Below are positions 1,470 to 29,248 of a DNA stretch of 64,000 bases, one piece after another (position 1 is the first letter of the stretch; each line of letters begins with the position of its first letter). A model generated the notes under the pieces. The model saw only the letters and a list, made by a program, of their open reading frames with translations, was not told the DNA's origin and searched no databases. The stretch comes from Arenimonas sp. (lineage in GTDB: Bacteria > Pseudomonadota > Gammaproteobacteria > Xanthomonadales > Xanthomonadaceae), in contig JBOHYH010000171.1 of the NCBI GenBank assembly GCA_050737775.1, positions 8,300 to 72,299 of the forward strand, in the 5' to 3' direction. The position numbers were made by a program, and so were the translations under genes.

Positions 1470-1476
1470 TGCTCAT

Positions 1477-12094: not shown

Positions 12095-12107
12095 TTAAAT
12101 GCCCAAT

Positions 12108-12132: not shown

Positions 12133-12349
12133 GTTTGACGAAGCCACTTTTTGATTACGCGAGCAACAGGAATTGCTATGCAGTTGACCAATAGATCGGT
12201 TTTTATTCAGACAAGTCCCGAAAAAGACTCGTCATTCCCCTAAAACTGAAGGGTCTCAGGTTTTGCGACATATGAGCCTAATAGTAACCAACAGGAAACT
12301 AGCCGCTCAGGGAAAGGACACGCCGAGCATTGTCCTAAGGAGGTCTTCC

Positions 12350-12712
12350 ATGTCTATTTGGCAAATGGCGTCGGTGGAGCATCAACCACGCGTCACGCTT
12401 GTTCGCAGGCGAGCACTTCGATTATCAGCCCATGAAAAGACTATCGATTTAGTCCTTGGCTGGTACCTGGAAGATCATCACGCCCGTATGAGCACACCGA
12501 TAAAGCACCACGATGTACAAGCTCGCACGTTGGTTACCAAGAGTGGCCGTGAGTATTCGGTAGCAGGTGATTCCGAATACTGTGATGACGCCGAGTACGT
12601 TCTGGAACAGCATTTTGGGCCAACAGCGAGTACGGCAATCGATGTCAGTGCCGAGTATATTGGCGGGCTGCTAAAGCAAGCTTCGGAGAACAATCATGCC
12701 CTCGATTATTAA
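12350..12712 (+). CDS. Conserved-looking hypothetical protein (MSIW...VTKSGREY type)
   Basis: Strong RBS aaggaggt before ATG 12350; overlaps the next ORF. Confidence 0.65.
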   Translation: MSIWQMASVEHQPRVTLVRRRALRLSAHEKTIDLVLGWYLEDHHARMSTPIKHHDVQARTLVTKSGREYSVAGDSEYCDDAEYVLEQHFGPTASTAIDVSAEYIGGLLKQASENNHALDY

Positions 12713-12980
12713 ATTCTCCCCTCGCGATGTTCAATTAGAAATCCAAGATATCTACGGCGATTTGCTGAACCACTTGCGTGATGGAAGCCATCCGAATGAA
12801 GACCAGATGGGAGCGTGGATGGACAAACTGACAAGGATCGCTGCCGTAACCGACAGTTTAATTATCGCCTGCGAAGATTGGATAGATCATGGCAGAGACC
12901 CCTATGATTTCGAGGCTGTGAAACGGGCGGTTGCTCATGCACATGGCCAGCAAGATTATTCACCACGAAAACATCGATAG
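12696..12980 (+). CDS. Hypothetical protein
   Basis: 94-aa ORF coupled to the previous gene. Confidence 0.55.
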   Translation: MPSIIKFSPRDVQLEIQDIYGDLLNHLRDGSHPNEDQMGAWMDKLTRIAAVTDSLIIACEDWIDHGRDPYDFEAVKRAVAHAHGQQDYSPRKHR

Positions 12981-13009
12981 TACTAAAATGTAACGTCAAT
13001 TAATCAGAG

Positions 13010-13297
13010 GTGCTGCTCATGGACAGACTTAGTCTGGCGATCTTTTTGGTTGACTTAGCCTGGACTGAATACGAACAATGCTGCGCTGACGTCTGGCGCG
13101 AATTTGAGCGTATTGATCCAGCTCTTGCAAGAGAAGTCGAACGACTAGGCCTTACAGAGGAAGGCACAGCGGAATGGGTTTGCCCCAGCCCTTATGAAGG
13201 ACAATCCTCACCCGCTGAATTGCTCGTAGAAGGAAAACGCGACAAGATATTACGCAAGATAGAAGGTGTATTGCATGCGCCAGACCTGACCTCATAG
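13010..13297 (+). CDS. Xre/MbcA/ParS toxin-binding-domain-like (DUF2384-like) protein
   Basis: AEWVCPSPYEGQSSPAELLVEG resembles the W...P...GG.SP.ELL..G pattern. Confidence 0.5.
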   Translation: MLLMDRLSLAIFLVDLAWTEYEQCCADVWREFERIDPALAREVERLGLTEEGTAEWVCPSPYEGQSSPAELLVEGKRDKILRKIEGVLHAPDLTS

Positions 13298-13306
13298 ATC
13301 ACGCTG

Positions 13307-13339
13307 TAACAACATTCTTCTGCTTGAAGAATGTTGTTA
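13307..13339. terminator. 14-bp perfect inverted repeat between convergent genes
   Basis: taacaacattcttc-tgctt-gaagaatgttgtta. Confidence 0.65.
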
Positions 13340-13428
13340 TTTCACTTGTTAGAATAGCGCCTTCGTGATGAATCTTATCCTGAGGCGTACTTGATTATGG
13401 TGCGAGTGTCGAGTGCCATCCCATCTGA

Positions 13429-14208
13429 TTAACCCCTAAGTGCTTTACGACGACGCTGCGAAATTCCGAATTGAGCAATCGCAACAGGGGTCTTATCAAC
13501 GGCGCGTTTCAAGACGTGATGTAATCGCTCTTGCATATCAATGTCTATCATGAGGATAAGCGCGACAACACCTGCGCCTAGTAATATCAGAATCCCAAAA
13601 TGTTTAGGCAAGTCGAAGCCTGTAGAATCGCTGAGCGCTTGAAACGCCACAAACACAGCACTAACAATAACGATAACTCCTGAACGTTCTTTTAATAGTT
13701 TTATCGATAATGCAATGCGATCTGCAAATTCACACAATACGTCTCGCGAGATTTCAGAGCCCATAATTTCAGTGAACAGCGCTTCTTCTTTTAGTCTGTG
13801 AGCGTCTACCATCAATGTTTGATACTCACCTTTGTTCGAAATCATGTGGTATGCCTCTCTGGCAACCACGAATACAAAGGCTGTAAAACAGAACCCCACG
13901 ACAATGAAAAAAACACCTGCCGCATTTTCGATTACACGATCAGACAGATAGCCAAGCTGCTTGCCAAAGGCAAGCACGATGAAAAGCAAAATATCCAGAG
14001 AAAATACGCAAGCTGTGATTAACAGAACTTTTTCAAAAAGCCCAGGCTTCTTTTTGTCCGGGGCTAGCCTCGCCATGAAGTTATTGGTAACGGGCACATC
14101 ATTTATCAGCAGTGGCAATTCTTTGGCGATGATGGAACTCTGAACTTTGTTGCCTGGCTGTCCTTTATCAAACATTCTTCTTACACTCCATCTACTTGGT
14201 TGGATCAT
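13429..14208 (-). CDS. Hypothetical membrane protein (about 4 TM segments)
   Basis: 259-aa ORF with two pairs of hydrophobic helices. Confidence 0.65.
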   Translation of the reverse strand: MIQPSRWSVRRMFDKGQPGNKVQSSIIAKELPLLINDVPVTNNFMARLAPDKKKPGLFEKVLLITACVFSLDILLFIVLAFGKQLGYLSDRVIENAAGVFFIVVGFCFTAFVFVVAREAYHMISNKGEYQTLMVDAHRLKEEALFTEIMGSEISRDVLCEFADRIALSIKLLKERSGVIVIVSAVFVAFQALSDSTGFDLPKHFGILILLGAGVVALILMIDIDMQERLHHVLKRAVDKTPVAIAQFGISQRRRKALRG

Positions 14209-14774
14209 AGTTTTTTGAATTATTAACTTAATTTGGTAGTAACTGTCTCAGCTTCCAGCGAATTAATATTCACGAAGTTTTATAAAAAAGACTTTCTTTG
14301 TCTTGGAAGGGTTTCATTGCGTGCACAAAAACAATACGAAACTTAGTATAGGTTTTCTATACGCTGAACATCCAAGTCCATACATTGAAAATACGATTTC
14401 CTTTATAGGCTGCTAATAAAGCCTTTCAGCTCTTCGTAGCCGTTTCAGATGGTAATAATTTCTCGATTTCAAAGCGTTGCTATTCGCAGAATCCATACGG
14501 GTTGCGCATTGTTTTTCCATCAAAGAACGACATCCATTTGAATTGAATATTTTTTAACGTATCGGCTGTTATTTAGGGTTCTCATAACTTTTCGTTATAA
14601 GTCATTTGCTAACTAAGTGCTATTTCGACCTCCTTAACTAGGGGGGTTTGCACATTTTGGCATTCGCTGTCGGTATAGCTTTTTGATCATTTACTTCAGA
14701 AAAAACACTTCTTGTTACCAGCGGTAATTTTGAGTCTGATAGTCAAGTCCAGTTGTTCCGGAAAAGAAAGCTAA

Positions 14775-15071
14775 ATGCAGCTAATTCCACTTGCAGACCA
14801 GTTATTTCTAGAAGAGAAACTCTTGTTGGAATTTGGGCCGTATGTGCCCGTCGGCAAGGCTTGGCGTTTGCTTTCGTATCCGTCTCTAGATGCGGCAAGA
14901 AAATCCTTCAAGAGGGGCGTAGCTCCCCTTGACGCGATTCGATTAGATGGCCGCAGAGGGCAATTTGTATCCAGTGCTGCCCTGGCAGAGTGGCTGGCGG
15001 ACGCACTCCTAGTGGGTGCAAAGCAGAAAAAACATCACGTGCAAAACGATGAATCAACCCCAATAACCTAA
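14775..15071 (+). CDS. Small DNA-binding protein (excisionase/AlpA/PrtN-like HTH)
   Basis: FGPYVPVGKAWRLLSYPSLDAARKSFKRG...GRRG.FV...LAEWL winged-HTH-like pattern upstream of the transposase. Confidence 0.6.
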   Translation: MQLIPLADQLFLEEKLLLEFGPYVPVGKAWRLLSYPSLDAARKSFKRGVAPLDAIRLDGRRGQFVSSAALAEWLADALLVGAKQKKHHVQNDESTPIT

Positions 15072-15115
15072 CTTATGGAGGAGGCTACAACCGGGAACGT
15101 AACCTTATAAATAGA

Positions 15116-15140
15116 AAACCCAGTCGTGGGGACTGGGTTT
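15116..15140 (+). terminator. Hairpin between the HTH gene and tnsAB
   Basis: aaacccagtc-gtggg-gactgggttt perfect 10-bp stem. Confidence 0.6.
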
Positions 15141-15247
15141 AATTTCTACTTACATTGGTAGTGCGTCGAAGCCTACGGTGTGAGATTGAGACTTTTTTGT
15201 GCCGTTGTCAAGCACATGAAGGCAGCAGTCCCGTTTCGCCTAAAATC

Positions 15248-17770
15248 ATGCTGAACGACAAGGAATTCAATACCTATATCCAAGAGCAGGAAGTCTCGGC
15301 ATCCGCTACTTCCTATATCGATACCACTAGAAAATCCAACCCTGCAAAAGCCGCTGGTGATGGGGCTTTATTGAATATGTCTTGCCGACTGGCGAGCCGA
15401 AAAATGGGCCACATCGTACAGGCCGCAAGTCGCACTGTGGAACTGCCCTATGCTATTCATTGCGAACTGCACCCTACCGTCTTTGAATTTTGGGACCAGC
15501 CCCGTCCGATACGTCTCATCCGTGTAAGGCTAAGCAAGAAAACCAACAAAGACATTCGCCATGTTGCTTCTTATACCGGGGATTACTTGACGCTTTACGG
15601 TAGCGGACCGGCAATCGTTGAATGTAAGTCTGCATCGGCGTATGAAAAACTAAAATCGAAACGTCCCAGCGACTGGAGTATTTCAGATTCGGAAATTGTC
15701 TATTTTCCGGCACTGGTAGCAGCACAGAATCTTGGCTTAGCTCATATCGTGGTAATGCCTGAGTCTCATTACGCAATTCGCGTAAATAACTACGAGCTCA
15801 TGTACGCGTGTCGGTATAGCCAGGCACCAAAAAATGAAGCTGCACTTCTCGAAGAAACGCGGGCTAGTTTGGCGGACGATCCGAAAACTATTGCACAACT
15901 TTGTGAGGAAGTAGATGGGCTGAATGACAGCTTGATCATTCATTGGCTTTCGCGCTTTGAGCTTCATTCATGTGTGAGATCTCAGCTGCTGATGGAGCGA
16001 CATTCCGCCTATATCTATCTAAATGCAGATGACGCAAAAACTAGAGACGATTTCCTGAAAGCGGAGCAAGACAGGAACAATGGCTTTATCGACTCATCAA
16101 AACTATCTATCGTCCTAACGTGTTCGGCATCTGCATTAAGGACCGGCGAAGCACATCAGAAAAAATATCAGGAATTCCTGGATGGGAAACGCAGTAAAAC
16201 CAGGCATGAACGCCGCTTTCCAGAAGAACTAATACGCGAATGCATAAATCGTTCTGGAAATCCTCTGCATCTTTTTATTCCTAACTACAAGTGCCGTGGG
16301 AATCGAAACGACAGGTATTCGCCTAAGCAGATCGAAATTTTTAACAAGGCTCTTAAGCAAATAATGGCGTCGCCCAGTCGTGCCACGCCAACACGTGTCC
16401 TTGCTCGAATGGACAGGCTATCGAAAGCAGACCCAAGAAGTATTGAGCAAGTTTCGCTTGAATCTGTACGTCTACGTCTGAAAAAGGAAGATCAGGAAAA
16501 AATCGCCCTGGCTCATGCTGGTCTTCGTGGATTCCATGGTGAACGACCGCCGATCGATCCCCTCTTCGGCACGTTGCGTACCTGGGTGCCGGGACTTGTT
16601 GTACACATCGATTCAACGCAGTGGGACCAGCGGCTTTGGAAGGAATCAGGCTTTGCGGACATCCTGCCTTGCCCTTGGTGGTATGGCGCCTTTGACGAAG
16701 GAAGCGGTCGCTGTGTAGGAGCATCATTAGCCTTCGGTAAATCTGACACATTCGCAATGTCTCTAGTGATGCGCGATATGGCTCGTCGTCTCGGTTTTTT
16801 ACCTGCCTTCATCGTCACAGATCGAGGCTCAGAATTTCAGTCAATTCTTTTCGAAACACTCAGTGCATTATGTAGCGTCAGCACCTTTCTGAGACCCGCC
16901 GGAGGCGCACGTTTCAGCTCTGAAGCTGAAAATGGTATGCGCCTGCCAAATGTGCAAATGGCGCAGCGTTTGTCCGGTAGTACATTCCTGGATAAAGCTG
17001 GCCGAAGTGCTGATGGCAAGAAGAAAGGTCGTTATAACGCTCGAATGACGTATCAACTGGCTAGGCAAGCATTGATCTGGTATCTCTTCGAATTCTTCAA
17101 TAAGAACAAGCACGGAACAGCTCCCGACACGCCCGATAATCTGTGGGACGAGGGCCGACTTTGCTATCCGATGGTCGGTTGCGAACTACTCGAGCCCCAA
17201 AACTGGGCTATTGCTTCAAGCGTGCCAGTGAAAGGCACCGTCGAGCGATTAAAAGGGATTCGTACCTACTACCGCACCTACAGTTCAAACGAGCTCTCTG
17301 AAGCACTCAAACGCAACGAGACCCCTAGTCGCAATCGCATCGACCCAGAAATACCGACTCTAATGTATTCAACAATTCATGGCCAAGTAATTAAGGCGCA
17401 TGACAGACAACACCTTCGCCTCAGTTCCCTGCCAACCGAGGCTCAAGTAGCCGAGCAGTTTTTGCATCGTCTGCGGGCAAAGGAAAACAGCAACGATCGA
17501 CGCGAGCAGCGTATGAAACTAGATACACGACTCGACCAAATGGAGGAGGTGGCCGATCTACTCCATGACACTAAAAAAGCCGCTACAGGTACTGATATTC
17601 CTAAGAACAGTAACACCAGCGTCGAACCTGAAGTGCATAAAACTAGTGGGGCAGACGCGTCCCCTGTAGTTCCGGAAAAGCAAAAAACGTCGCTATTCGA
17701 TCAAATTGCAAAGACTAAACCCCCAACCCAACTTAAGGATTTTGATGATGAAAAAAATTCCAGTGTTTGA
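15248..17770 (+). CDS. tnsAB: Fused TnsA endonuclease - TnsB DDE transposase
   Basis: N-terminal TnsA-like S..E.......E.....EFWDQP...YTGDYL...IVECK; C-terminal DDE triad VHIDST / IVTDRGSEF / SEAENG; a single ORF. Confidence 0.85.
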   Translation: MLNDKEFNTYIQEQEVSASATSYIDTTRKSNPAKAAGDGALLNMSCRLASRKMGHIVQAASRTVELPYAIHCELHPTVFEFWDQPRPIRLIRVRLSKKTNKDIRHVASYTGDYLTLYGSGPAIVECKSASAYEKLKSKRPSDWSISDSEIVYFPALVAAQNLGLAHIVVMPESHYAIRVNNYELMYACRYSQAPKNEAALLEETRASLADDPKTIAQLCEEVDGLNDSLIIHWLSRFELHSCVRSQLLMERHSAYIYLNADDAKTRDDFLKAEQDRNNGFIDSSKLSIVLTCSASALRTGEAHQKKYQEFLDGKRSKTRHERRFPEELIRECINRSGNPLHLFIPNYKCRGNRNDRYSPKQIEIFNKALKQIMASPSRATPTRVLARMDRLSKADPRSIEQVSLESVRLRLKKEDQEKIALAHAGLRGFHGERPPIDPLFGTLRTWVPGLVVHIDSTQWDQRLWKESGFADILPCPWWYGAFDEGSGRCVGASLAFGKSDTFAMSLVMRDMARRLGFLPAFIVTDRGSEFQSILFETLSALCSVSTFLRPAGGARFSSEAENGMRLPNVQMAQRLSGSTFLDKAGRSADGKKKGRYNARMTYQLARQALIWYLFEFFNKNKHGTAPDTPDNLWDEGRLCYPMVGCELLEPQNWAIASSVPVKGTVERLKGIRTYYRTYSSNELSEALKRNETPSRNRIDPEIPTLMYSTIHGQVIKAHDRQHLRLSSLPTEAQVAEQFLHRLRAKENSNDRREQRMKLDTRLDQMEEVADLLHDTKKAATGTDIPKNSNTSVEPEVHKTSGADASPVVPEKQKTSLFDQIAKTKPPTQLKDFDDEKNSSV

Positions 17771-18854
17771 ACATCAGAAATTTAATGAGGCGCTTGATGA
17801 GTGTTACGACCTCATTCTAAATGCCCAACCTGGAGAACTCATCCATATCGTTGGTGCATCGGGCATTGGAAAATCAACGCTTCGCAACCGCTTGTTTCTG
17901 GAAATCGGTAAGTCCCTGGGTGATTTGCCCATTGGTGAATTACGGATTATTTCAGTCAATGCCAGTAACAATTCGAATTCTTACTATGATTCCAAAGATT
18001 TTTTCTCTCGATCGCTCATCTATGCTGGCGACCCCTTCCGTTTCGTACCAAATGCAATTGAGAAGTCGAACGATGCCGACTCATTAGATCGATACCTAGA
18101 GCGCCTCGTTAAATCAAAAGAATGGCTCGCCAAGAATATCCCGAATACTGAAACTGATATCCGCAGCGCATTTGAAAGAATCTGCACCGTTAGGGGAGTG
18201 CTCTTCTTTTTCATTGACGAGGCACATGTCATTCGAATCAACCATAAGAACCGCGATCCGTCCAATCATATTGAGTCTCTTAAAAATATTGCCGTAGAAT
18301 TGGGAATCGTGATCGTACTTTTTGGCACATTTGCGTTGCTGGAGTTGTGCAATTTCAGCTCAGAAGTCAATCGTAGGGGACCTGTAGTCCATTTCTCCCG
18401 GTATATGGAAAATGTTGAAGAACTGCCAGGCTTCCTTGACGTCCTGGAAAAGCTAGGTGCGGAATTCACGTTTTGCGATCCCGAGTTTATTCGAACACAT
18501 TGGGAGTATATCTATAGTGTGACGGTCGGGGTTATAGGTGAAGCACATGGCTTGTTTAGAAGAGCAAGCGCCAAAGCTTGGGTACGGTGCAGAAAAGCGA
18601 AAATTAGCAGAGTGACAATCATTTATGCAGACTTAAAGAATGCAGCACACCCAGTGGCAAGACTAAAGAAACTCTATTTCGATATTGCAGTCGGTGAGGC
18701 ATATTTCGAGCAAGCTACGGACGAACTGCTCGGAGAATTGCGTCATAAATTGATGACAAACACGCTGATTGAAAGCCCCACTGATGACCCAATATCTCCT
18801 AAACGTCGACCTGGCCTTAGAACTCTTGTCCGAGACAAGGTAGGAATACGGTGA
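17745..18854 (+). CDS. tnsC: TnsC/TniB AAA+ ATPase
   Basis: Walker A GASGIGKS, Walker B FFFIDEAH; RBS taagga before ATG 17745; overlaps the tnsAB end. Confidence 0.9.
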   Translation: MMKKIPVFEHQKFNEALDECYDLILNAQPGELIHIVGASGIGKSTLRNRLFLEIGKSLGDLPIGELRIISVNASNNSNSYYDSKDFFSRSLIYAGDPFRFVPNAIEKSNDADSLDRYLERLVKSKEWLAKNIPNTETDIRSAFERICTVRGVLFFFIDEAHVIRINHKNRDPSNHIESLKNIAVELGIVIVLFGTFALLELCNFSSEVNRRGPVVHFSRYMENVEELPGFLDVLEKLGAEFTFCDPEFIRTHWEYIYSVTVGVIGEAHGLFRRASAKAWVRCRKAKISRVTIIYADLKNAAHPVARLKKLYFDIAVGEAYFEQATDELLGELRHKLMTNTLIESPTDDPISPKRRPGLRTLVRDKVGIR

Positions 18855-20191
18855 CTATAAGTACTATATTAGCGCCGCTTAAACTACATGGGCCAGGCAC
18901 CGCATTAGCGGAGTCTGTCGAGTCTTATCTGTGCAGGCTTGCTCATGTCCATTGCGTTACTCCTCGGCAGTTGATCACTTTCACATTATATGCAGCTGCG
19001 CATCCGGATGTGTTCGGGGTTGAATCTGAGTTATCGTCCAATCAGAGCATAATGAAAGCGTTTAGAGTGACGAAATCTATTGTCTATTCAGATACCTGTG
19101 GCTATTCATCGACCACACTTCGAATCATTGAGCAACTGAGTTTATTGACTGGCCAAACAAATCTAGTATGTGGCTCGTTATTAAGATTTCGCCATATTCT
19201 GGCTCGCAATTGCGGAAACTGTTTCGCTAATTTCAGGCGTTGGTGCCCATTGTGTTATCAGGACCCCTTGTTCAATAAAGCAGAACCGTTGGCATGGGGG
19301 ACGAAGTTTATATCACGCTGCGAGATGCACAATTGTCTGCTCGTTGACCGCTGTCCTAAATGCTCGCAGTTTCAGTGTCATTTTCGTGCAACGAAAACCC
19401 GCCTCACCTGCAGTAGCTGCGGTGCTAATTTGGGATATCATGCGCCAAGTAAAGCGGAGCTTGGCCCTTGGGATATGTGGTGTGAAGCCAAGATGCGAGA
19501 GCTCATTACACACATTTCAGATGCTGAAATTTCACCTTTCGATACCAGCTGTATTTCCCGATTTGAAAGAGCATTCAGAATCTCTTATAAAGATAGATTA
19601 TCCAGACCACACTTCATATATTCAAACATTTCTAGCAGAAAAAGTAACTCGCGCAAGTTTACTGAAAAGTCTAGACCGCGCCTTGACACAATTTTTAGAA
19701 TTAGTGCGCACCAATCAGTATCGCCACTTCAATTCTTTCTCATCCCTGAGGTGTGTGCAACTGTGGTTTTATTTAAAGATTTTTTGCATGATATTCCGAA
19801 TATTCCATTATTTCGTCGAGACCCATCGCTCTACGATGATTTTTATTCGAGAATGAGAAAGCTAATGAGTGATTGCAGTCGTCTTCCGTCCCTTCGACAT
19901 CTTTGCAGTAACGCGGGAATTATAGTAGGAAGTATGCGAACGAATAATAAGCAGCTATACAATGAATACCAACTGTTGCGGGCTGCACGCGAGAAAGAGT
20001 ACAGATCACTTCAAATAAAGAACAGCAAAAAAAAGCTTGCCGAAATAATTCTATTACGCGAAGAAAAGCAGCTGGGAATTGGTGTTGTTATAATAGCGGA
20101 CGAGTTACGAGCTGCGGTCGGAACGTCAAAAAACTTATCCAGAAAAATAGCACGTGAAGCATTGTTAGAAAGAGGTCTTATTTCGCGATGA
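18851..20191 (+). CDS. tniQ: TniQ/TnsD family target selector with long C-terminal extension
   Basis: ESVESYLCRLAHVH N-terminus; RRWCPLC...W......CEMHNCLLVDRCPKC zinc motifs; GTGA overlap with tnsC. Confidence 0.9.
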   Translation: MTISTILAPLKLHGPGTALAESVESYLCRLAHVHCVTPRQLITFTLYAAAHPDVFGVESELSSNQSIMKAFRVTKSIVYSDTCGYSSTTLRIIEQLSLLTGQTNLVCGSLLRFRHILARNCGNCFANFRRWCPLCYQDPLFNKAEPLAWGTKFISRCEMHNCLLVDRCPKCSQFQCHFRATKTRLTCSSCGANLGYHAPSKAELGPWDMWCEAKMRELITHISDAEISPFDTSCISRFERAFRISYKDRLSRPHFIYSNISSRKSNSRKFTEKSRPRLDTIFRISAHQSVSPLQFFLIPEVCATVVLFKDFLHDIPNIPLFRRDPSLYDDFYSRMRKLMSDCSRLPSLRHLCSNAGIIVGSMRTNNKQLYNEYQLLRAAREKEYRSLQIKNSKKKLAEIILLREEKQLGIGVVIIADELRAAVGTSKNLSRKIAREALLERGLISR

Positions 20192-20330
20192 AATGAAAAC
20201 CTCTATCTTCTAAAGCATATCCACGATCTCATAAAGACAGCCAAAGTAGCCAGCAATGTTAAATATTTTCATTGCACCAAGATGTTGGCTAGGCTAGCCC
20301 ATATGAACGAACCCATATTAACGAGATTGC

Positions 20331-21764
20331 TTATTGTCCACATGGCAACGCAGCTCTGTCTGTCTTAGGCCAACATACTTCAAGAAAGGTACACGCTTGG
20401 CAACACACTCGGCTATCTATTGGGGCTATTTGACATCTATCATCGCGTCTATCCAAGACCAATTGGTGAGCGCAATGATGGGCTTGTCCGTCGACAAAAA
20501 GTGCTCTCGGTTTGTGAATGGATCGCGTGCTTAACTGCGTGTTGCCGCTGGGGTAACCCGCTGCGTCACAGGCCCGCCATTGATGAAACCTACACGGGTC
20601 TACAACTGGCGTGGTTATAAGATAGTGCGTCGCTTGTCCAGTAATCAGCATCCAATGATCGGGGTTTACTTCATCGACTTCTATATAAAGAGGTTCGATT
20701 TGTTTTCGTGAAAATGCACTGGTTCGAGGTTTATAGCCTGGGCATGCCGCCAGAGGGGCGGGTTCTAGCACCACTCCGGTCTCAGTCGAACATTGATTCA
20801 GCAGATCAACTGCACGAATTCTCATTTCTTCCAAGTGATCCGCTAACTTTTTCGGAGAATCTTCTTGGTAGTCTACGATCAGGCAGTCGGTATGATGCAT
20901 TATAGTGAGGAGAACATTGTCATCCCTCAGTATGATAAGTGATGGATATACAAGGATGCGCGGACTAAGGACAAACTTCTTGCTACCAGAAGACTCATAC
21001 CGAACATGTACGCCGTGGAAGACGGCTTTAATCTTGTGAACCTGAATATGCTGTGGAAGCTGTGCTGGCCGCAGCAGCTTCGGAGGCCGGGAAGCTAGTG
21101 ATTCGTATCCAAGCAAATCCAATATTTCTGTCGAGCGCTCAACAAATTGTGATCGATGAAAAATTGCGATTTGTTCGTCGTTAGCAGTATCGTTCTCAGA
21201 AAACGTTTCACTAGGATTATGGAAAACAACTAGCCACTGTCCGCTTGTGAGTACCGCTCGCTGAATGTCATGATTGTGATTCGTTTTAAGTGCGCGTACA
21301 TACCTCATAACTTGACCAAGAAAGCCGTGCCACGTTGCAAAAGTGGGAGAGTCAACTTCCGCGCCCTTGTTCTTGATGTGGTTTATGGATCTGACTATTA
21401 AATTGGATTCCGTTTCGTTTTCGTTTTTGTTTCTTGAAGTAATGAAAGGCACGTCCCATGCTTTTGCTTCTACCATCAATATTGGATTTCGTTCTATCTC
21501 CGTAATTCCGATGTAGTCCATAAAATTCGTTGTGTCGACTTTAATTCTGGCTTCCTGAGCAACAGTACCAGAACTACCGAAGGTCCAACCCAACGCTTTC
21601 AATACCCCATCAATGAAAAACTCACGAGTCGTGAACTCTAGAATATTTGGTGTTCCTGCACCTGAGTAAGCCTCCAACGGATCAGTACCTGTCACTTTTT
21701 CAATGTCGCCAAGAAGTCGTTCCATCTCCTTCTTGAACGTGTTCGAGGCGTCTAGGCTATTCAC
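20331..21764 (-). CDS. HsdR_N-like restriction endonuclease domain protein with Cys-rich C-terminus
   Basis: TTREFFIDGVLKALGW...QE...DY...PILMVEAK; C-terminal CRFHQWRAC, HHCAH and CCQACTFLEVC; ATGA overlap with the upstream STAND gene. Confidence 0.75.
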   Translation of the reverse strand: MNSLDASNTFKKEMERLLGDIEKVTGTDPLEAYSGAGTPNILEFTTREFFIDGVLKALGWTFGSSGTVAQEARIKVDTTNFMDYIGITEIERNPILMVEAKAWDVPFITSRNKNENETESNLIVRSINHIKNKGAEVDSPTFATWHGFLGQVMRYVRALKTNHNHDIQRAVLTSGQWLVVFHNPSETFSENDTANDEQIAIFHRSQFVERSTEILDLLGYESLASRPPKLLRPAQLPQHIQVHKIKAVFHGVHVRYESSGSKKFVLSPRILVYPSLIILRDDNVLLTIMHHTDCLIVDYQEDSPKKLADHLEEMRIRAVDLLNQCSTETGVVLEPAPLAACPGYKPRTSAFSRKQIEPLYIEVDEVNPDHWMLITGQATHYLITTPVVDPCRFHQWRACDAAGYPSGNTQLSTRSIHKPRALFVDGQAHHCAHQLVLDRRDDRCQIAPIDSRVCCQACTFLEVCWPKTDRAALPCGQ

Positions 21765-24700
21765 TGAAGTAAATCAGGAATGCGATAAAGTAAACGACGA
21801 GCGGAAGACCAACCTGCATTCATGAGAATTTCAAGCGAAGCAACCAGTAATTCACGGCGCTTACTTTCTTCAAATATATCTTTGTGATCTGCCAAAAATA
21901 CGCCGAAAATCTTGACGATTAAGTCTGCTCCCATAGATTCGTACTGGTAGCCACCCCGCTTTCCGCCTTTCAGAAGTGCACCTGCCGCTAGATCAAAAGT
22001 CTTTCCTGGATTGCATTTAATAAGTTGTTCCAAAAGCTGCAGCAGATAGTAAATCGTGTGAGGAGAGCCATATTCTGTTATTGCATCTATTAGCTCATGC
22101 ACTTCATTGAAGTATTGCTGGAGATCGTCCCTCTGCAGTTTGGCGTTCTCATCGTCTTGCTGTCTAGAGATACCTGCCGCAAAATATAGCTCGCGACAGG
22201 CTATGTCGATAACCTCTACACATTGCTTAGCTTGAGAAACGTTTTCGGCGGTAGGATTGGTGGTGTCATAAAATTCAGCCAATTGCTTATTTGCGCTCTG
22301 GATGCAGTCTAAATAGATTTTCTGAGCCCGCTGACGTATAGGAAGATCGCCAGGGTCTCCCTGTTTTAGTCCAAAAACTAGTGCCCCTCGAAGTGTCGTT
22401 AAAACACTTCGCACTGGGTCGAAGTTATTTTCCGCGTTTGATATCCAAGCGTTGATTCTCGCATGCGCTTTCGGAAGTTCGTGCGTGACCCACAATATCG
22501 AAAGCAAGCTCGCTACATTTGCTGATAAACGTCGTGTCGCGTCTTCGTTATTTTCAAATCGATCAAGCAGGTTCAAAAGCAGAAGCTCGATCCGTGCACG
22601 TTCTGTATGTAAATACTTGGAAATGACGGCAGAGATTAGGAGAACGAGTACGGCAATACTGGTTTCGGTAGCTAGGCGTCTCTCAATCCGAGTCCACATG
22701 CCGAATCGATCAATGTGCCATAACCTAACCAGCCTATGACATGCTTGCATGCGTACCGCCGGATGACGGTCCGCCAATGACTTATCAATCAATGGAGCTA
22801 AAGCAGCATACAAATCGGGGCGCTGAAACAGCAATTCCAGCGCGGCGGTTGCCGCTTCCACTCGTGCCGCGGGACTTCCCCAGCTCGGCGATTCTTCAAA
22901 CGAGACATCGGTCATGGAATCAACGTACGGATTTTGTGAATTTGACGCAATTTGAATGAAGTGAACCAACTCTGTCACAGCAGTTTCTGAGGTCTCCGCG
23001 GACAACAGCTTCGCCTCTAGTATTTTTTGTATACCCTCTCCGAGTATTCCCTCCGCATAACCGCGTAACTTTTCATGAACATTCTTCGTAGCATCCAATC
23101 GACTAACGAGATTTCTAAGAACCCGAAGAGCTTCGTCTAGTGTGAATGAAACTTGCGACTCATCGGCTTTTCTAAGATTCAATTTTTTAGTTAATGATTC
23201 AATCTTTTCAATGATTATCGCGTTTTCAGGAGCCTCATGGTCGAGGCCATCGATCCAAAAATACGGCGGGGTTGCGTGTGCGCTTGTTTTCACAACATGT
23301 AGTCGCTCGTTTTCTACCTCTTCGTCGACTTGTGTCTCCAAGAATTGTTGGGCACCCTTCGTCAAAAGGTAGCCTTTTCCAATTGCACTGAAAAGCCGGA
23401 TGAGTAGGTACCGTTTTGCATCCTCTGCGTGAACGAAACGCGAAAGATCAAACTCAAAGACTGCCTTCTCAAATTGCTGACGCTCAGATTCAGATCTGCG
23501 CACAATCCCGCAAACTAACAAATCTATTGCATCTTTTCGAGTATCAGGCGAGACGAGAAATGCCTCACTAGCCGCGTAAGGCCATAAAAAGTCGGTTAGT
23601 TCATCATTTCGCTTAGCACCCACCATAAAAAGGCGCGACCAGTAAACTGCCAGCGTCGCATTGCTTATCAGATAATCTGCCAATATGATCGCATGCGATT
23701 CAGGTACTGCTTTTAGATGGGACACGAACTTTGTTATGAGTACTTCGGCATCCTGGCCGTGATCGTCGTCAGGATTGTGCGCCCAGATATAACTCAAGTC
23801 CTCTTGCATCTTAGCAACGCGCCCGTTGACGTCGACTTGGTGGAGCTCGTGGGTCGACTCAAGATGGTGTGCACGATCGACATAGGCATTAACGGACCAC
23901 AGAAATGCCTTAGTTGCTACAAGCGGATCGGACTCTAAAAACTTAGGGAAATGTTCGCTTAATGAATAGCGCGCCATTTCGTAATCCTGGCGCGCATTAG
24001 ATCTAAGGGGCAATATCTGGCTCGCGCCTAAGAGCGTCTCACGGTCTTCAGTAATTTTCTTAGTATAAATTTCCCGATAAACAATGGCAGCAAATTCTGG
24101 ATCTACTTCAGATAAGGCTGCTATTTTTCTTGCGATTGCCGGGGCCTCTTCAAAACCCCAAGTTTTGAAGCGATTATGATCAAATACGCGGCCGAGCAAC
24201 ATTCGTGATTGATCTGGATCGGTTTCATATGTACTGATTACAAATTCAATGGCTGCTGTGCTTAGCATCACCGGGTTTTGAACCGTAAAAGCATGCTGCA
24301 GTAGTGCTCGTGCCGTTTCACCCATTTCTGAGTGCTGTACCGTTTCCTTGGCTCGGTCTATTAGGAGAAATCCTAAGGAACGAATGGTCCATGCATTAAG
24401 TACAACTCCGGGAGTAACCAATGCTGCTAGATGTGACCATGGTGAAAGTGGAAAATCACCTTCATCTTCAATCCGAACCGCAAGCGCACCTATTACTTGA
24501 GAAAAAGCGATTCTCTCGGCTTCACCACCGGCCAAAATAATTTCAGCTAGCGACTCTGTGTCAATTCGCTGCTCGGGAAGTTCCACTGAAATCCTACTGG
24601 TCGCACTGCGAATGACTGGGTCACCAGCCTGGTCTCCGAGTATTTCCACAACTCGTTTCCAAAATCGGAAGTGATTTGTCTCGCTTGCCCATAACTCTTT

Positions 24701-26626
24701 CAAAATGAAGGAGAACGCGGGAGCCAGCATTAGACCCAATGTTTTACTACCCTCAGCAGTTGCGTTTTGTTGGATGTGATTGTCCGAATCGAAATATACG
24801 CGGCTCGCAGCATAGTCAAAAAGTATATGGTGGCGAAATTGCACCCACCTATCAGCGTCCACGGAAATTAGAACCCCTTCTCGGTGCAATACTTCTAAAG
24901 TTTCCGGATCGCTATCAATCGCTGATGCACGCGATACTCGTAGTGAGTGTGAATTCACCATGGATTGGACTAGGCGGTGTAAGCATTTTTCAGCTGCAAA
25001 ACCGTGTCTCTCGATGCGCAGTTCCCAATAAAGGCTGAGCAGCTGCGTCTGAGTGGAAACATGAAGAACATTCGCAGTCGACACGCCGCTCGAAACTATT
25101 TCACCTAGCAAACGCGTGTTAAACGGCACCCTTGCCAAATCGTGAAGTCGACCTGGATTTCCTGTCAACAGTGCATTCAGTGGACTGTTGTTTGCAAGCA
25201 ACCTCTCTAGCTCTGTTTCTGACCAAGGCGGAATGCAAATGTGACGGATATTTGAAAGAGCTGGTTCAGCAAATTTTGACGATAAAGGCTGACCTTTAAA
25301 AAGCGATCGCAGCTGCTGCCCCATTCGCAAATCGAACGTACGGATGGACGCTACTACCTTCCAGCGCCCATTCTTTCGCATGACGCTCTCGATTAGTGCG
25401 CGATATACTGCTTCGCCTTTTCCACCTCGGGTGGCATCTAAGGCATCAATAATTAACCATGCCGGCTGAGATCCATCCCATGCATCAATGACATCTAGTA
25501 AAGGGTGGGCAAGATCTAGTTCCCTTGTAAGACCTTCCAGTGATTCAATCGAGTAGCTATCTACTGCAAGTTCAAGCACATCGAAACCTTGATATTTAAG
25601 GCTTGATGCCAAAGCGTTTAATACGCCGCTCTTTCCGGCACCGGGCTCGCCAACAATCAAGAAGGAACCATTTTGAGCAGCTGCCTCAACAATATCTTGG
25701 CACTCTCTCCTGATTGCGATTTGTTCAGTTGGACCAACGCTTATGATTTCGTACTGGTGTAGAGCTTTACCTACCCGCGTTGAGTGATCCCTCAGCTTTG
25801 CAATGTCAGCTCTGTAAGGCGGAGAGTATTCCAGTTTTGCACCTGATTTTATGATGGCTTCGCGAAGATCAGATGAACTTGCTCCTCCTCGGCGAGCCAT
25901 AAATTCCCCACAAATATGGCCCAACATCAACCTCGCCGCGCTTGCGCTTTCGGCATTTGGTAACACAGATTGCAATGTGTTTTGTAAAAGTGAATCGTCA
26001 GGATCGAACGTATATATAACAACCAAATGAGAAAGCTCAGCCAGGACCTGTTCTATGAATGGTTCGCTAGTTAGTGTTGGCCAAACTTCACGCACGCAAT
26101 ATTCGAAATCATTCAGGGCTTTGCGCTGCACATCGGACATTAGCGATTCGCCAGGCTCCCGTCGCTTTCTCAGTGCAGCTGGAAGGTCAACACGAATTTT
26201 AGCGGATGCTTGTGGACCAACGGCGAGTACCAAGCGATCTGTCGTCAGATCCAACGGTCTATTCCAATCGAGTTTCCCGTCGCCATCACGACACACCAGC
26301 CAATGGCGGACAAACTGTTCGACCGTCTTCCCAAACTGACTCTGTAAGTTGCGTGACAACGAGAGCGATGTCTTTGCCTGCACTGCAACAAAGCCACTGT
26401 CTGACGTTCCGATTAAAATGTCGTCAACCGGGGCTTCTGTTTCAAAGCGAAACCATAGAGGTTGAGCCGTGCCCAAATTTAGACGCTGATCAAGGGAGTT
26501 GCCTGCGAGCATCCATCCACCAATTAGAGCTCCTAGCTTTTGTTGAAAGAGGATTCCGGCTGCTGTCGCTGAACCGCCGCTATTTGCAAGCAATCCATCG
26601 TTGTCGTTTGTCGATGAGGTTGTCAA
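21761..26626 (-). CDS. Nuclease-STAND NTPase-helical repeat protein (AVAST/Avs-like)
   Basis: N-terminal GILFQQ...ETEAPVDDI...VQAK (Cap4/Mrr-like nuclease); Walker A GEPGAGKS; Walker B WLIIDALD; about 1000 aa of helical repeats. Confidence 0.8.
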   Translation of the reverse strand: MTTSSTNDNDGLLANSGGSATAAGILFQQKLGALIGGWMLAGNSLDQRLNLGTAQPLWFRFETEAPVDDILIGTSDSGFVAVQAKTSLSLSRNLQSQFGKTVEQFVRHWLVCRDGDGKLDWNRPLDLTTDRLVLAVGPQASAKIRVDLPAALRKRREPGESLMSDVQRKALNDFEYCVREVWPTLTSEPFIEQVLAELSHLVVIYTFDPDDSLLQNTLQSVLPNAESASAARLMLGHICGEFMARRGGASSSDLREAIIKSGAKLEYSPPYRADIAKLRDHSTRVGKALHQYEIISVGPTEQIAIRRECQDIVEAAAQNGSFLIVGEPGAGKSGVLNALASSLKYQGFDVLELAVDSYSIESLEGLTRELDLAHPLLDVIDAWDGSQPAWLIIDALDATRGGKGEAVYRALIESVMRKNGRWKVVASIRTFDLRMGQQLRSLFKGQPLSSKFAEPALSNIRHICIPPWSETELERLLANNSPLNALLTGNPGRLHDLARVPFNTRLLGEIVSSGVSTANVLHVSTQTQLLSLYWELRIERHGFAAEKCLHRLVQSMVNSHSLRVSRASAIDSDPETLEVLHREGVLISVDADRWVQFRHHILFDYAASRVYFDSDNHIQQNATAEGSKTLGLMLAPAFSFILKELWASETNHFRFWKRVVEILGDQAGDPVIRSATSRISVELPEQRIDTESLAEIILAGGEAERIAFSQVIGALAVRIEDEGDFPLSPWSHLAALVTPGVVLNAWTIRSLGFLLIDRAKETVQHSEMGETARALLQHAFTVQNPVMLSTAAIEFVISTYETDPDQSRMLLGRVFDHNRFKTWGFEEAPAIARKIAALSEVDPEFAAIVYREIYTKKITEDRETLLGASQILPLRSNARQDYEMARYSLSEHFPKFLESDPLVATKAFLWSVNAYVDRAHHLESTHELHQVDVNGRVAKMQEDLSYIWAHNPDDDHGQDAEVLITKFVSHLKAVPESHAIILADYLISNATLAVYWSRLFMVGAKRNDELTDFLWPYAASEAFLVSPDTRKDAIDLLVCGIVRRSESERQQFEKAVFEFDLSRFVHAEDAKRYLLIRLFSAIGKGYLLTKGAQQFLETQVDEEVENERLHVVKTSAHATPPYFWIDGLDHEAPENAIIIEKIESLTKKLNLRKADESQVSFTLDEALRVLRNLVSRLDATKNVHEKLRGYAEGILGEGIQKILEAKLLSAETSETAVTELVHFIQIASNSQNPYVDSMTDVSFEESPSWGSPAARVEAATAALELLFQRPDLYAALAPLIDKSLADRHPAVRMQACHRLVRLWHIDRFGMWTRIERRLATETSIAVLVLLISAVISKYLHTERARIELLLLNLLDRFENNEDATRRLSANVASLLSILWVTHELPKAHARINAWISNAENNFDPVRSVLTTLRGALVFGLKQGDPGDLPIRQRAQKIYLDCIQSANKQLAEFYDTTNPTAENVSQAKQCVEVIDIACRELYFAAGISRQQDDENAKLQRDDLQQYFNEVHELIDAITEYGSPHTIYYLLQLLEQLIKCNPGKTFDLAAGALLKGGKRGGYQYESMGADLIVKIFGVFLADHKDIFEESKRRELLVASLEILMNAGWSSARRLLYRIPDLLQ

Positions 26627-26725
26627 AAGGCGTCACACCCTATTGGCTGATATTTGGAAATACGGGTTATCGTAAGCGTATCACCATCCTGTTCAGCTTT
26701 GAGAGTAGAAATTGTGTTCGATGCC

Positions 26726-27766
26726 TCATACCTCAGCCTTGCTTTGGTTGGCGTGCCAATTCTTCCATTGGCTTCTCTCCTTAAGTACTTGATCAGCATT
26801 TACTATGCGGGGTCGCAGCATCGGAACTTCAATTGACGGAGCCGCTGAGAAAATCATCCGATGAGCATGCTCGGCAATGATTTGGCGAAATTTGTACGCG
26901 AGCTGCCATGACACCACGGCACTTCGGTGAGCGGGTCGATTACCTACCTTCGTATACAAGAGACATCTCGGCCCCAAAGGAAGCATTATTTCAGTTCCAG
27001 GATTTGCCCAGCCTCCGTTGAAGTCGTAGTCGCCATCGCGATAATAATTGAGGCGAATAACCGGATCGTCGCTTGTGAACCAAGTAGTGTCATCGGGCGG
27101 CGTCAGCAGCATCCACCTATTCAAATTGAGCGTTTCAAGAGTCTTGGTAAGTAGATGTTTAATGGAAAACAGCCACATAACTCTTCCAATTGTTGTTTCT
27201 ACCTTGACCACTCCTTCGTCATTGTCTGCGTTTTTCGTAATGCTAACGCGCATAGGGACATGATCCTTCCAACATGGCTCCGCCATTGGACGTGATCTTT
27301 CCGCGTTACTTGCTGACTCTAGATTACGCAATGAATTTCTCAGCGTGGCATCCACGAGTGCGGGAACTGTTTCATTCCACCTCTTAAGATTTTCCATGAG
27401 ACGCGCTGGTGTCCGCACATCTTGCGAAGCAACAAATCGAATTAGATGTCTCCAATCTGTCTTGCTTAACCGCGCACCGGTATTTGCATTGTGAATCGCC
27501 TCGGTCGCTGGCGACTCGAACTCTTGATCAAGCCATCTTTCGATTTGGTCTGTTTCTTCTCCCGCGACAACATGTGTATAGAGATGTTCGTGATATGCGA
27601 TGCCTTGCAGGGAGGATTGTTTCCAGACAGGGACACGGGAATCTGACACTAACGTGCGGTAAGTTGATATATGCCCGTTCGTAGCCCATTGCTTCAAATA
27701 CATACATGGAACGTAGTGATTTCTTCGATGAAGTTCCGACTGTCTCTCTGGAGTCTGTACTTCCAT
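26726..27766 (-). CDS. DUF4238 domain protein
   Basis: RRNHYVPCMYLKQW N-terminus and WFTSDDPV motif; RBS gagga before ATG 27766. Confidence 0.85.
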   Translation of the reverse strand: MEVQTPERQSELHRRNHYVPCMYLKQWATNGHISTYRTLVSDSRVPVWKQSSLQGIAYHEHLYTHVVAGEETDQIERWLDQEFESPATEAIHNANTGARLSKTDWRHLIRFVASQDVRTPARLMENLKRWNETVPALVDATLRNSLRNLESASNAERSRPMAEPCWKDHVPMRVSITKNADNDEGVVKVETTIGRVMWLFSIKHLLTKTLETLNLNRWMLLTPPDDTTWFTSDDPVIRLNYYRDGDYDFNGGWANPGTEIMLPLGPRCLLYTKVGNRPAHRSAVVSWQLAYKFRQIIAEHAHRMIFSAAPSIEVPMLRPRIVNADQVLKERSQWKNWHANQSKAEV

Positions 27767-27851
27767 GAATTCCTCTGGCAGATATGAAATTAGGTCTCTC
27801 CCAAACTGACAATGACTCATACGACTTATGCTATTACAACAGACAGAGTAT

Positions 27852-28814
27852 TCATTCAATCACTGTTCTATGTGTTGCTTCAGAAATTTCGTTTGTTGTG
27901 ATATTCCTCAAAGGGCCTGGACCGAAACAGTCTGCTATTTGCATGAAGGTACTGTTTTCGTCCATGTCATCGCCATGCAAAGATATCGCTTGCCACACTG
28001 TGCATCGCCTTACACTTGATGCTTCAACGACCGTTCCTACGGATATGTATCGAATCATGATACCGAGAGTGGCGGGCGAGGCCAGCATTTCAATCCATTG
28101 AGGCCTGAAGTATCTTGCGATGTAAGCTGTCAGATGGCTTTCCGCTGTTTCCTCCAGCTCATCTTCGGTTGTTGAATTGATCGGACCTTGAGCAAATCGG
28201 ATGGGTTTTGTTAGATCAATTACTATCACGCCTGGAGGTCCTCCGAATTCATATTGCTGCCCGTCCAATTGTGTTCTCGCTTTTCGCAATCGTTGCTCCA
28301 AACGATTCAATGACGATAGTCTTTTACACTCGGCTGGCCAGCGTTCACGTCCGACAGTGATGTCTCCTCCATTCGGAGAGAAGCCTCCAAATTGATTTTT
28401 ACGGTGCAGTGCAGCAGCAGCTGAGAATTCAAAGGCATAGTCTCTTGCTCTGTCTGATCCTTCAACGCTCATAAACTCGCGGCCGTCGCTAACCTGTCGC
28501 AATTTTCGGAGTACTTCACCATCTTGAAACACGTTTGGATTTAAAGCTGCAATATCGGTGATGTCTACTGCTTCAATAATTGCGTTAAGGAATCCATTGT
28601 CTTGTTGATGTTCCGTCAATTCGCTTTGCTCAGCAATGATGGCGCGATCAAGTATTTCGGAATACCTAGCCAGCCGCGTGCCGTCGATTCTGACGCCCAT
28701 ATCCTGCAGTGCATCTAATGCCGTCAGATATTCTTGATACAACTGAGCAAGCGGCTGTAAATGCAAAGGCATCAGATCTGGCTCTCCGGTAAGCGTTCTA
28801 TCTATATATTCCAT
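27852..28814 (-). CDS. Hypothetical protein with PD-(D/E)xK nuclease-like motif
   Basis: DYAFEFSAAA...GGDITV...WPAECKRL. Confidence 0.6.
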   Translation of the reverse strand: MEYIDRTLTGEPDLMPLHLQPLAQLYQEYLTALDALQDMGVRIDGTRLARYSEILDRAIIAEQSELTEHQQDNGFLNAIIEAVDITDIAALNPNVFQDGEVLRKLRQVSDGREFMSVEGSDRARDYAFEFSAAAALHRKNQFGGFSPNGGDITVGRERWPAECKRLSSLNRLEQRLRKARTQLDGQQYEFGGPPGVIVIDLTKPIRFAQGPINSTTEDELEETAESHLTAYIARYFRPQWIEMLASPATLGIMIRYISVGTVVEASSVRRCTVWQAISLHGDDMDENSTFMQIADCFGPGPLRNITTNEISEATHRTVIE

Positions 28815-29080
28815 TAGGCCGCGTGTAATGCAATAAGCTCATTACGCAATGCTTGAAAAAATCGTTCTTGCCGAGAATGCCTCAGTTGAGGATGTCGACG
28901 GGAATACAATAATGCGCGCTCAATGGGCTTGTCGGTGACAGAGTTCAAAGGCACATTTTGAGGGGCTCATAAAATGCTGCAATTTTATGAAGCGCGCAGT
29001 AATTTCTGATTTGCCAAAAGTGCCTGCATGCTCGAAAGACAAGAAAATCAATAGCTTAAAGACTAAAGATTTTCACAACC

Positions 29081-29148
29081 ATGTTTTGTCCGAAGCATTA
29101 ACAATCAAAACATGTCCGAACGGACAGAAATTGCTTGGTTGTCCAAAG
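29081..29148. repeat. Periodic tgtccRaa repeats, candidate TnsB-binding sites / transposon end
   Basis: tgtccgaag at 29087, tgtccgaac at 29113, tgtccaaag at 29140 (26-27 bp period); palindrome tgtccg-aa-cggaca at 29113-29126. Confidence 0.45.
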
Positions 29149-29171
29149 CCAAAGGGCCTGTTCGCAAAAAG

Positions 29172-29248
29172 TGGCGCGCCCGACAGGAGTCGAACCTGTG
29201 ACCCTTGCCTTCGGAGGGCAATACTCTATCCAGCTGAGCTACGGGCGC
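29172..29248 (-). tRNA. tRNA-Arg(CCG)
   Basis: 77-nt cloverleaf GCGCCCGTAGCTCAGCTGGATAGAG-TA-TTGCC-CTCCGAA-GGCAA...GGTTCGACTCC...CCA. Confidence 0.97.

Follow-up and report, generated by a model that had tools for sequence, protein, structure and literature searches.

A probable Cas-free Tn7-like transposon with a fused TnsA-TnsB transposase beside a tRNA-Arg(CCG) gene in an Arenimonas-like gammaproteobacterium

The tns operon and its neighbourhood

We analyzed a 64,000-nucleotide stretch of DNA from a soil Arenimonas sp. (the window: positions 8300-72299 of contig JBOHYH010000171.1, hereafter C171), which belongs to a metagenome-assembled genome (MAG) of 387 contigs and 3.4 Mb, with a genomic guanine-plus-cytosine (GC) fraction of 0.513. 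Its left part is a low-GC island in which a three-gene transposition operon, tnsAB-tnsC-tniQ, is followed at some distance by a tRNA-Arg(CCG) gene. We read this island, with considerable confidence, as a Cas-free Tn7-like transposon of 31.2 kb that belongs to the subfamily with fused TnsA and TnsB, homes to tRNA-Arg(CCG) and carries defence and toxin genes. The features that bear on this reading are the following (window coordinates; lengths in amino acids, aa; ORF, open reading frame; strand given where one applies):

1..29145: part of the transposon inside the window (GC drop, inverted repeat, AAGC repeat)
14775..15071, + strand: small ORF of 98 aa just upstream of tnsAB, conserved in position
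15248..17770, + strand: tnsAB, encoding in one frame a TnsA-type endonuclease joined to a TnsB DDE transposase (840 aa when counted from the ATG at 15248; ORF open from 15155)
17745..18854, + strand: tnsC, an AAA+ regulator of 369 aa (Pfam AAA_22/TniB)
18851..20191, + strand: tniQ/tnsD target selector of 446 aa; TniQ zinc domain at the N-terminus, helical extension of ~240 aa at the C-terminus
29077..29145: tRNA-proximal transposon end (motif scans; homology with the ends of relatives begins exactly at the terminus)
29146..29171: host spacer of 26 bp between the terminus and the tRNA 3' end; it opens with AAGC, the same 4 bp as lie outside the distal end
29172..29248, − strand: tRNA-Arg(CCG), the putative attachment-site determinant (ARAGORN), its 3' end facing the island

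TnsAB carries both a TnsA PD-(D/E)xK motif set and a DDE triad in one reading frame, as the preliminary description of this locus had recognized. In a sequence search of the PDB it matched a single chain, 9bw1_M (E 7e-29): residues 36-262 align to the N-terminal TnsA part of that chain, and residues 482-758 to its DDE core. Chain 9bw1_M is an 898-aa protein named 'Integrase', in an entry that also contains TnsC and TnsD chains of a CRISPR-associated transposon (CAST) and that we take to be the PmcCAST type I-B2 TnsABCD transpososome. Both catalytic triads, E65/D112/K127 of the TnsA type and D455/D525/E561 of the DDE type, are invariant in an alignment of 17 TnsAB sequences; the corresponding triad of Tn7 TnsA is E63/D114/K132. 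Neither Pfam-A nor NCBIfam gives a match to the protein, even with the E cutoff relaxed to 10. An exhaustive HMMER search of a 1.8-billion-protein library returned 1,250 relatives, with 178 clusters (50% identity) at E<1e-30, and nearly all relatives at that threshold are ~800 aa long and aligned end to end.

The three tns genes overlap, tnsAB and tnsC by 26 nt and tnsC and tniQ by 4 nt (the stop codon of one running into the start codon of the next), an arrangement consistent with the coupling noted in the preliminary description. The best PDB matches of TnsC, over its full length, are the type I-B CAST TnsC chains 8fcu_Q and 9g0f_A (E 1.8e-24). TniQ matches the Pfam TniQ family (E 1e-11) and, by sequence, the small TniQ 8fcu_P (E 8e-14) and the TnsD 8v32_J (E 6e-12), in both cases only over residues 14-230. 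Its full length, including the helical C-terminal part, is nevertheless common to seven homologues. An AlphaFold model built from the homologue alignment (mean predicted local distance difference test, pLDDT, 68; predicted template-modelling score, pTM, 0.56) gave the TnsD 8v32_J as its top Foldseek match, spanning the full length (471 columns, E 1.5e-11, template-modelling score, TM, 0.44), with the small TniQ ranked second. Since the first structural match of the model is a TnsD and the C-terminal region is conserved, we regard the selector as TnsD-like; model and conservation together lend moderate support to a predicted DNA-binding role of the C-terminal part.

Homologues of the 98-aa ORF occupy the same place in three related elements described below (L014, 55% identical; L017; L031). 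One member of this small family has a weak HTH_17 match (E 0.097), and the protein is probably an AlpA/excisionase-like helix-turn-helix (HTH) regulator.

Scans of the island ORFs against Pfam, NCBIfam and PADLOC revealed no Cas family, and the island contains no regularly spaced direct repeats of the kind that form a CRISPR array: the Cas effectors and array that define a CAST are absent from the element. There is no Phage_integrase (PF00589) match on contig C171, while nine occur elsewhere in the genome; Pfam scans of the ORFs gave no recombinase family; and the tRNA 3' end is not repeated on the contig, even over 12 nt. The earlier claims of a Cas-free element lacking both an integrase and a duplicated tRNA segment are thus borne out, also beyond the left edge of the window, where neither an integrase nor an attL copy of the tRNA was found.

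Transposon ends and position relative to tRNA genes

The low-GC region (GC 0.41-0.49) runs from contig position ~6,200 to window position 29,170, and the whole element occupies C171:6227-37444, of which the part up to window position 29145 lies in the window. The preliminary description had placed the start of a 14.5-kb element at 14775 and its end at the CCA of the tRNA. Both boundaries have moved: 14775 is the start of the tns operon only, the distal inverted repeat lying 2,072 bp to the left of the window, and the proximal terminus falls 26 bp short of the tRNA. Predicted transposase sites, which we write as AACCAAGCAATTnnTGTCCG, and the ends that contain them are:

29077-29092 and 29100-29118, + strand: two internal sites of the proximal end (motif scan)
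29121-29140, − strand: terminal site of the proximal end; it overlaps the last 8 bp of the element, 29138-29145, which read TGGACAAC inward
C171:6227: distal end, TGGACAACATTCCAATTACTGTCCG; a second site, inverted, occupies C171:6288-6307

At the distal end a terminal site is accompanied by one inverted site 36 bp further inward, and at the proximal end a terminal site is accompanied by two. The two ends form an inverted repeat with 20 of 25 positions identical, including all of the outer eight. The distal terminus coincides with the second GC boundary, 70 bp past the last host-like gene. In a scan of the contig, clusters of the site motif were restricted to these two ends, with none in between. 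Immediately outside each terminus stands the same tetranucleotide, AAGC, as a direct repeat, and the closest relative (L014/L101) shows the same pattern with CCCG abutting both of its termini; a target duplication of 4 bp, or of 5 bp with a single mismatch, is therefore what these flanks suggest. The proximal terminus is fixed at 29145, because similarity to the L101 end begins exactly at TGG. The element is intact in its three tns ORFs and at both ends, and the tns genes are present in one copy in the genome.

Several other candidate boundaries were rejected. A terminus at the palindrome TGTCCGAACGGACA (29113-29126), suggested by analogy with the TGT/ACA ends of Tn7, is contradicted by the homology with L101 and with a Rhodanobacter element, which runs on to 29145 and stops there, and also by the distal partner, which matches the outer 8 bp. 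A distal end at 14.2-14.4 kb, as in L014, found no inverted repeat, target duplication or site motif at that place. A 'direct repeat' at the boundaries, considered as integrase att cores or as junctions of tandem elements, resolved into inverted copies of the site, and a suspected junction in the relative, at L016 7170-7206, contains no site motif.

When the proximal terminal 25-mer was allowed up to 5 mismatches, it matched its distal partner and one other place in the 3.4-Mb genome, C357:10923-10947 (TTGTCAGCCAAGCAATTGGTGTCCG), with 5 mismatches to the 25-mer and 1 to the 20-nt site consensus. No tRNA lies on that contig, no tns genes lie near the match, and the genome holds no second tns homologue. 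This match is probably due to chance, although it could be a solitary remnant of an end.

The tRNA-Arg(CCG) gene is the only tRNA gene in the window. Reading from the tRNA, the 26-bp spacer is followed by TGGACAACCAAGCAATTTCTGTCCG. The closest relative of the element, on a farmland-soil contig (L014, L016 and L101), is 49% identical in TnsAB and 44% in TnsC, and it is found at the same gene: in L101 the CCA end of tRNA-Arg(CCG) is followed by a 26-bp spacer of unrelated sequence and then by TGGGCGACCAAGCAATTAATGTCCA. The two hosts are much more alike than the two elements. BioF is 89% identical between them, and bioB-bioF-bioH-bioC have the same order and sizes in both. The cargo of the relative is also different, with AbiE, a dCTP-deaminase-like protein, ThiF and an RHS protein on the other side of the operon. 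The disparity between BioF (89%) and TnsAB or TnsC (49% and 44%), together with the different cargo, indicates two separate landings rather than a single inherited insertion.

A more distant relative in Rhodanobacter spathiphylli B39 (TnsAB 33% identical) leads to the same attachment site. Its tRNA-Arg(CCG) gene is encoded on the strand opposite to tnsAB, 12.7 kb further downstream, and a 24-bp spacer separates it from TGGACAAAACACCATAAAGTGTCAG; the distal end of this element was not found with two search patterns. Among the three tRNA-Arg elements the spacers are unalignable, while the tRNA and the transposon end align. The homologues are therefore not scattered over unrelated loci: the two closest relatives with enough sequence adjoin tRNA-Arg(CCG), at 26 and 24 bp, in agreement with the earlier proposal of a protein-only element that targets this gene.

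Five further relatives, with TnsAB 23-32% identical, end 24-29 bp from other tRNA genes: tRNA-Met, tRNA-Leu(CAG), tRNA-Leu(CAA) and, in two cases, tRNA-Glu(CTC). This brings to eight the number of related elements with an end 24-29 bp from a tRNA gene. Five more distant elements share the geometry of the one described here, with tnsAB on the + strand and the tRNA on the − strand, its 3' end toward the element; before the tRNA come repeats of AACCATnnnnTG[GT]CCG, next an inverted copy, and last a short spacer. Taken together, these positions support insertion at a fixed distance and in one orientation downstream of a tRNA gene.

The internal layout of the elements is less constant than their position. 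In L061 (tRNA-Leu(CAA), 24 bp), the end contains two identical sites, TTAAACCATCGTTTGGCCG, in the same orientation (L061 9352-9560), and tnsAB adjoins the tRNA-side end and is transcribed away from the tRNA, opposite to the element in the window, so that the orientation of the operon relative to the target-proximal end varies within the family. The distal end also varies, lying only ~480 bp upstream of the small ORF in L014 and more than 8-10 kb upstream of tnsAB in L031, L054 and L096.

One stretch in the relative deserves a separate mention. The 90 bp immediately beyond its distal terminus (L014 8971-9060) start with TGGCGCGCCTGGAGGGTCGAGAGC, which resembles the 3' acceptor/T-arm end of tRNA-Arg(CCG) (TGGCGCGCCCGACAGGAGTCGAACC) and is oriented like the genuine tRNA gene. 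Neither ARAGORN nor Rfam called a tRNA in this stretch, which may be a decayed duplicate of a tRNA 3' end left by an earlier integrative element.

From homology with the characterized relatives in cyanobacteria, we infer the following sequence of events. The long TnsD-like TniQ would use its helical C-terminal extension to bind the tRNA-Arg(CCG) gene and would recruit TnsC; TnsC would position the paired, TnsAB-bound ends; and insertion would follow in one orientation, ~26 bp past the 3' end of the tRNA, which would remain undamaged. Conservation of the TnsA-type E/D/K triad makes it probable that movement is by cut-and-paste, and the element may be active at present.

Alternative readings and relation to known systems

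A low-GC island next to a tRNA gene invites another explanation: that this is an integrase-type genomic island, in which a Tn7-like module is nested and close to the tRNA by coincidence. tRNA 3' ends are the classical att sites of integrases, the tns operon sits in the middle of the island instead of beside an end, and a ~32-bp imperfect direct repeat (GGACAnAAATTGCTTG...) is present at both boundaries. That repeat, however, consists of inverted copies of the transposase-site motif of the family, and the boundaries share their terminal sequence with the ends of the relatives. The Tn7-like ends map to the boundaries of the island, one of them beside the tRNA. With neither PF00589 on the contig nor a recombinase family in any ORF, no duplicated tRNA segment, and eight related elements ending 24-29 bp from tRNA genes, we consider an integrase island highly improbable. 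A single ancient insertion, inherited vertically and now a fossil, would also account for the shared position at tRNA-Arg(CCG), given that the host of the L014/L101 relative is close (BioF identity and synteny of the bio operon) and that Rhodanobacter belongs to the same order. This too is very unlikely: the proteins of the element have diverged to 49% and 44% identity where the host protein is at 89%; cargo, spacers and flanking 4-mers all differ; distant relatives occupy other tRNA genes at the same distance; and the three tns ORFs and both ends are intact.

The extent of the element is a more delicate matter. The island could be a composite, in which a shorter tnsAB element (~14.2-29.1 kb, as in the preliminary description) adjoins DNA that reaches from C171:6227 to ~14.2 kb and is either unrelated or an older element that lacks a transposase, with its outer end preserved. 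The position of the distal end in the closest relative, ~480 bp from the small ORF, favours such an arrangement, and a 565-bp non-coding stretch at 14210-14775, which holds short repeats of the ATCCA type, is patchily similar to that region of L014. But neither the terminal 25-mer nor the site motif occurs between window positions -1990 and 29070, no TGT/ACA pair with a target duplication was found, and in L031, L054 and L096 the distal end is also remote from tnsAB. A composite is therefore unlikely, and we retain the reading of one transposon of 31.2 kb. Some observations nevertheless weigh against that reading. The tns operon lies mid-element, 17 kb from the distal end, and set beside the ~480 bp in L014 this means that the left 17 kb could in part have been acquired later. 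The flanking direct repeat has 4 bp, as against the 5 bp typical of Tn7-like elements, and the termini are TGG...CCA, not TGT...ACA; the latter motif is not strictly defining, since ~20% of cyanobacterial TnsAB elements lack TGT/ACA termini too (PMC9881144). The TniQ model is of moderate confidence only (pLDDT 68, TM 0.44), and the element is known from a MAG contig. Finally, an unoccupied site was sought in genomes of the same genus and none was recovered, the flanks being unconserved with an identity of only ~70%, so that the ends rest on inverted repeats and homology breakpoints.

In its make-up the element has what distinguishes Tn7-like transposons: a TnsB DDE transposase with a TnsA endonuclease, TnsC and TniQ in one operon, and terminal inverted repeats with several sites (two distal, three proximal). 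Its nearest known counterparts are cyanobacterial. Hsieh & Peters (2023) described a cyanobacterial clade with fused TnsAB, found mostly in tRNA attachment sites that are read by a TnsD-like protein (PMC9881144), and the subfamily has been summarized in an Annual Review (PMC11406308). It includes the cores of the type I-B2 (PmcCAST/Tn7744) and type I-D (McCAST/Tn7575, CyCAST) CASTs (Saito 2021; PMC9881144; PMC10293859). The likenesses are extensive: a TnsAB that unites the two active sites in one polypeptide, a TnsC, and a long TniQ (TnsD) whose helical C-terminal part is predicted here to bind DNA. The fused cyanobacterial TnsA is active, in that a D106A mutant yields cointegrates (PMC9881144), and a C-terminal HTH of TnsD is essential for tRNA targeting (PMC11837452). 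The short, fixed distance downstream of the tRNA is comparable, 26 bp here against 29+/-1 bp after tRNA-Leu for McCAST (PMC9881144) and 30-33 nt after tRNA-Leu for CyCAST (Faure et al. 2023; PMC10293859). As here, the target-proximal end of the cyanobacterial elements contains TnsAB sites in both orientations (PMC9881144), and their termini need not be TGT/ACA. The only solved structures that TnsAB, TnsC and TniQ matched by sequence are those of type I-B CAST complexes, the best matches lying in 9bw1, 8fcu and 8v32.

The differences are as clear. The host is gammaproteobacterial and Arenimonas-like, the attachment site is tRNA-Arg(CCG) and not tRNA-Leu or tRNA-Val, and in contrast to the CASTs there are no Cas genes, CRISPR array or second small TniQ. 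The sequences are remote from the cyanobacterial ones, as the PDB E value of 7e-29, the confinement of the TnsD match to residues 14-230 and the invisibility of TnsAB to Pfam and NCBIfam indicate. Unlike in the cyanobacterial elements, the tns operon is transcribed toward the tRNA with cargo on both sides, the flanking repeat has 4 bp, and a conserved, small HTH-like ORF precedes tnsAB.

Comparison with Tn7 itself shows a shared logic with different parts. Like Tn7, which inserts at attTn7 downstream of glmS, the element would use a TniQ-family protein to read a conserved housekeeping gene and would land past its 3' end at a fixed distance, in one orientation and without damage; the combination of TnsA and TnsB heteromeric chemistry with a TnsC adaptor is also common to the two. 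Tn7, however, makes TnsA and TnsB as two proteins and targets glmS and not a tRNA gene; TnsE provides a second pathway, the termini are TGT/ACA, the sites have one orientation per end and the target duplication is 5 bp. No sequence match to the structures of Tn7 TnsA, TnsB, TnsC or TnsD was found, even at E up to 1-10. Another point of comparison is the group of cyanobacterial TnsAB-TnsC-TnsD elements that target CRISPR arrays, which are close kin of the tRNA-targeting elements and likewise have a minimal, Cas-free core with one tnsD (PMC11837452). They insert in CRISPR arrays, their TnsD lacks the C-terminal HTH and they have almost no cargo (PMC11837452), whereas the present element has a long TniQ C-terminus, ~25 kb of cargo and a site at a tRNA gene.

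The proposal of a tRNA-homing TnsAB family is thus supported by the positions of the relatives, but the concept of such a family is already established in cyanobacteria (PMC9881144, PMC11406308), and what is added is an extension and not a new principle. The subfamily, experimentally known only from cyanobacteria and their CASTs, would now reach into Xanthomonadales, with tRNA-Arg(CCG) as an added attachment site that is defined to the base pair in three elements. Among the matches listed in a full-text literature search that paired Tn7-like elements with tRNA-Arg, there was only an unrelated Vibrio cholerae paper. It follows from our reading that a defence and toxin island beside a tRNA gene, normally credited to an integrase, was here delivered by a transposon, and because Pfam and NCBIfam do not recognize the transposase, such islands are probably under-annotated. 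The Cas-free, three-protein core with its 26-bp offset might be considered as a simple system for inserting DNA site-specifically in Gammaproteobacteria, and the TnsD proteins of the family are a natural series in which to study how specificity switches between tRNA genes.

More tentatively, the relatives may belong to a large, mostly soil-proteobacterial branch of TnsAB fusions (at least 178 clusters), whose clades home to different tRNA genes at 24-29 bp with a single TnsD. A survey that starts from the TnsA and rve models of Pfam would probably overlook this branch, as no Pfam or NCBIfam model detects its transposase. If it exists, it would depart from the cyanobacterial paradigm in its target-facing tns operon, 4-bp duplication, TGG/CCA termini and small HTH partner, and it would constitute a compact, protein-only system for site-specific integration that is native to Gammaproteobacteria.

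Cargo and flanking genes

Cargo genes flank the tns operon on both sides and amount to ~25 kb in total. Those identified within the window are the following:

20331..26626, − strand: PDC-M54 candidate defence system of two genes (full-length PADLOC matches)
20331-21764, − strand: PDC-M54B, 477 aa (PADLOC E 7e-174)
21761-26626, − strand: PDC-M54A, a STAND-type NTPase of 1621 aa (PADLOC E 0; P-loop/STAND Pfam matches)
26726..28814, − strand: DUF4238 protein (377 aa) and an overlapping 320-aa protein (ORF, Pfam and PADLOC scans)
822..10702, − strand: upstream cargo block (Pfam; PADLOC), comprising the next five entries
822-1388, − strand: Mrr-like endonuclease (Pfam; PDC-S02-like PADLOC match)
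1477-2007, − strand: zincin-like peptidase (Pfam)
3363-4847, − strand: S41 peptidase (Pfam)
4959-5357, − strand: small ORF of 132 aa, downstream of the RHS gene and overlapping it, with no family match
5348-10702, − strand: RHS-repeat protein of 1784 aa (Pfam)

PDC-M54 is a candidate system of PADLOC that is experimentally unvalidated, and with this qualification its presence agrees with the earlier suggestion that the element delivers defence cargo. A trypsin-like peptidase (PDC-S45-like), an HTH_3 regulator and an outer-membrane beta-barrel protein are also encoded upstream of the tns operon. The RHS protein and the overlapping 132-aa ORF look like a toxin-immunity cassette; the L014 relative carries a different RHS protein, of 1575 aa, on the other side of its tns operon.

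Defence modules of the ubiquitin-like conjugation type recur in this transposon family. ThiF/E1-like genes lie beside Peptidase_M78/HTH genes in both the Rhodanobacter element (L017 4347-8199) and the farmland-soil element (L016 5087-7086), and the Rhodanobacter element adds E2 and JAB domains.

The host protein BioF agrees with the Xanthomonadales-like host proposed earlier: it is 89-93% identical to proteins labelled as from Arenimonas sp. MAGs and ~72% identical to that of Arenimonas oryziterrae. On the 5' side of the tRNA-Arg gene, ~8 kb of extra genes (window 29400-37300), encoding a 796-aa protein and others, separate it from ubiA (37585-38472) in this genome, whereas in the host of L101 ubiA and a 78-aa ORF lie directly upstream of the tRNA-Arg gene (L101 5700-7500). 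The 5' side of the tRNA therefore also differs between the two hosts.

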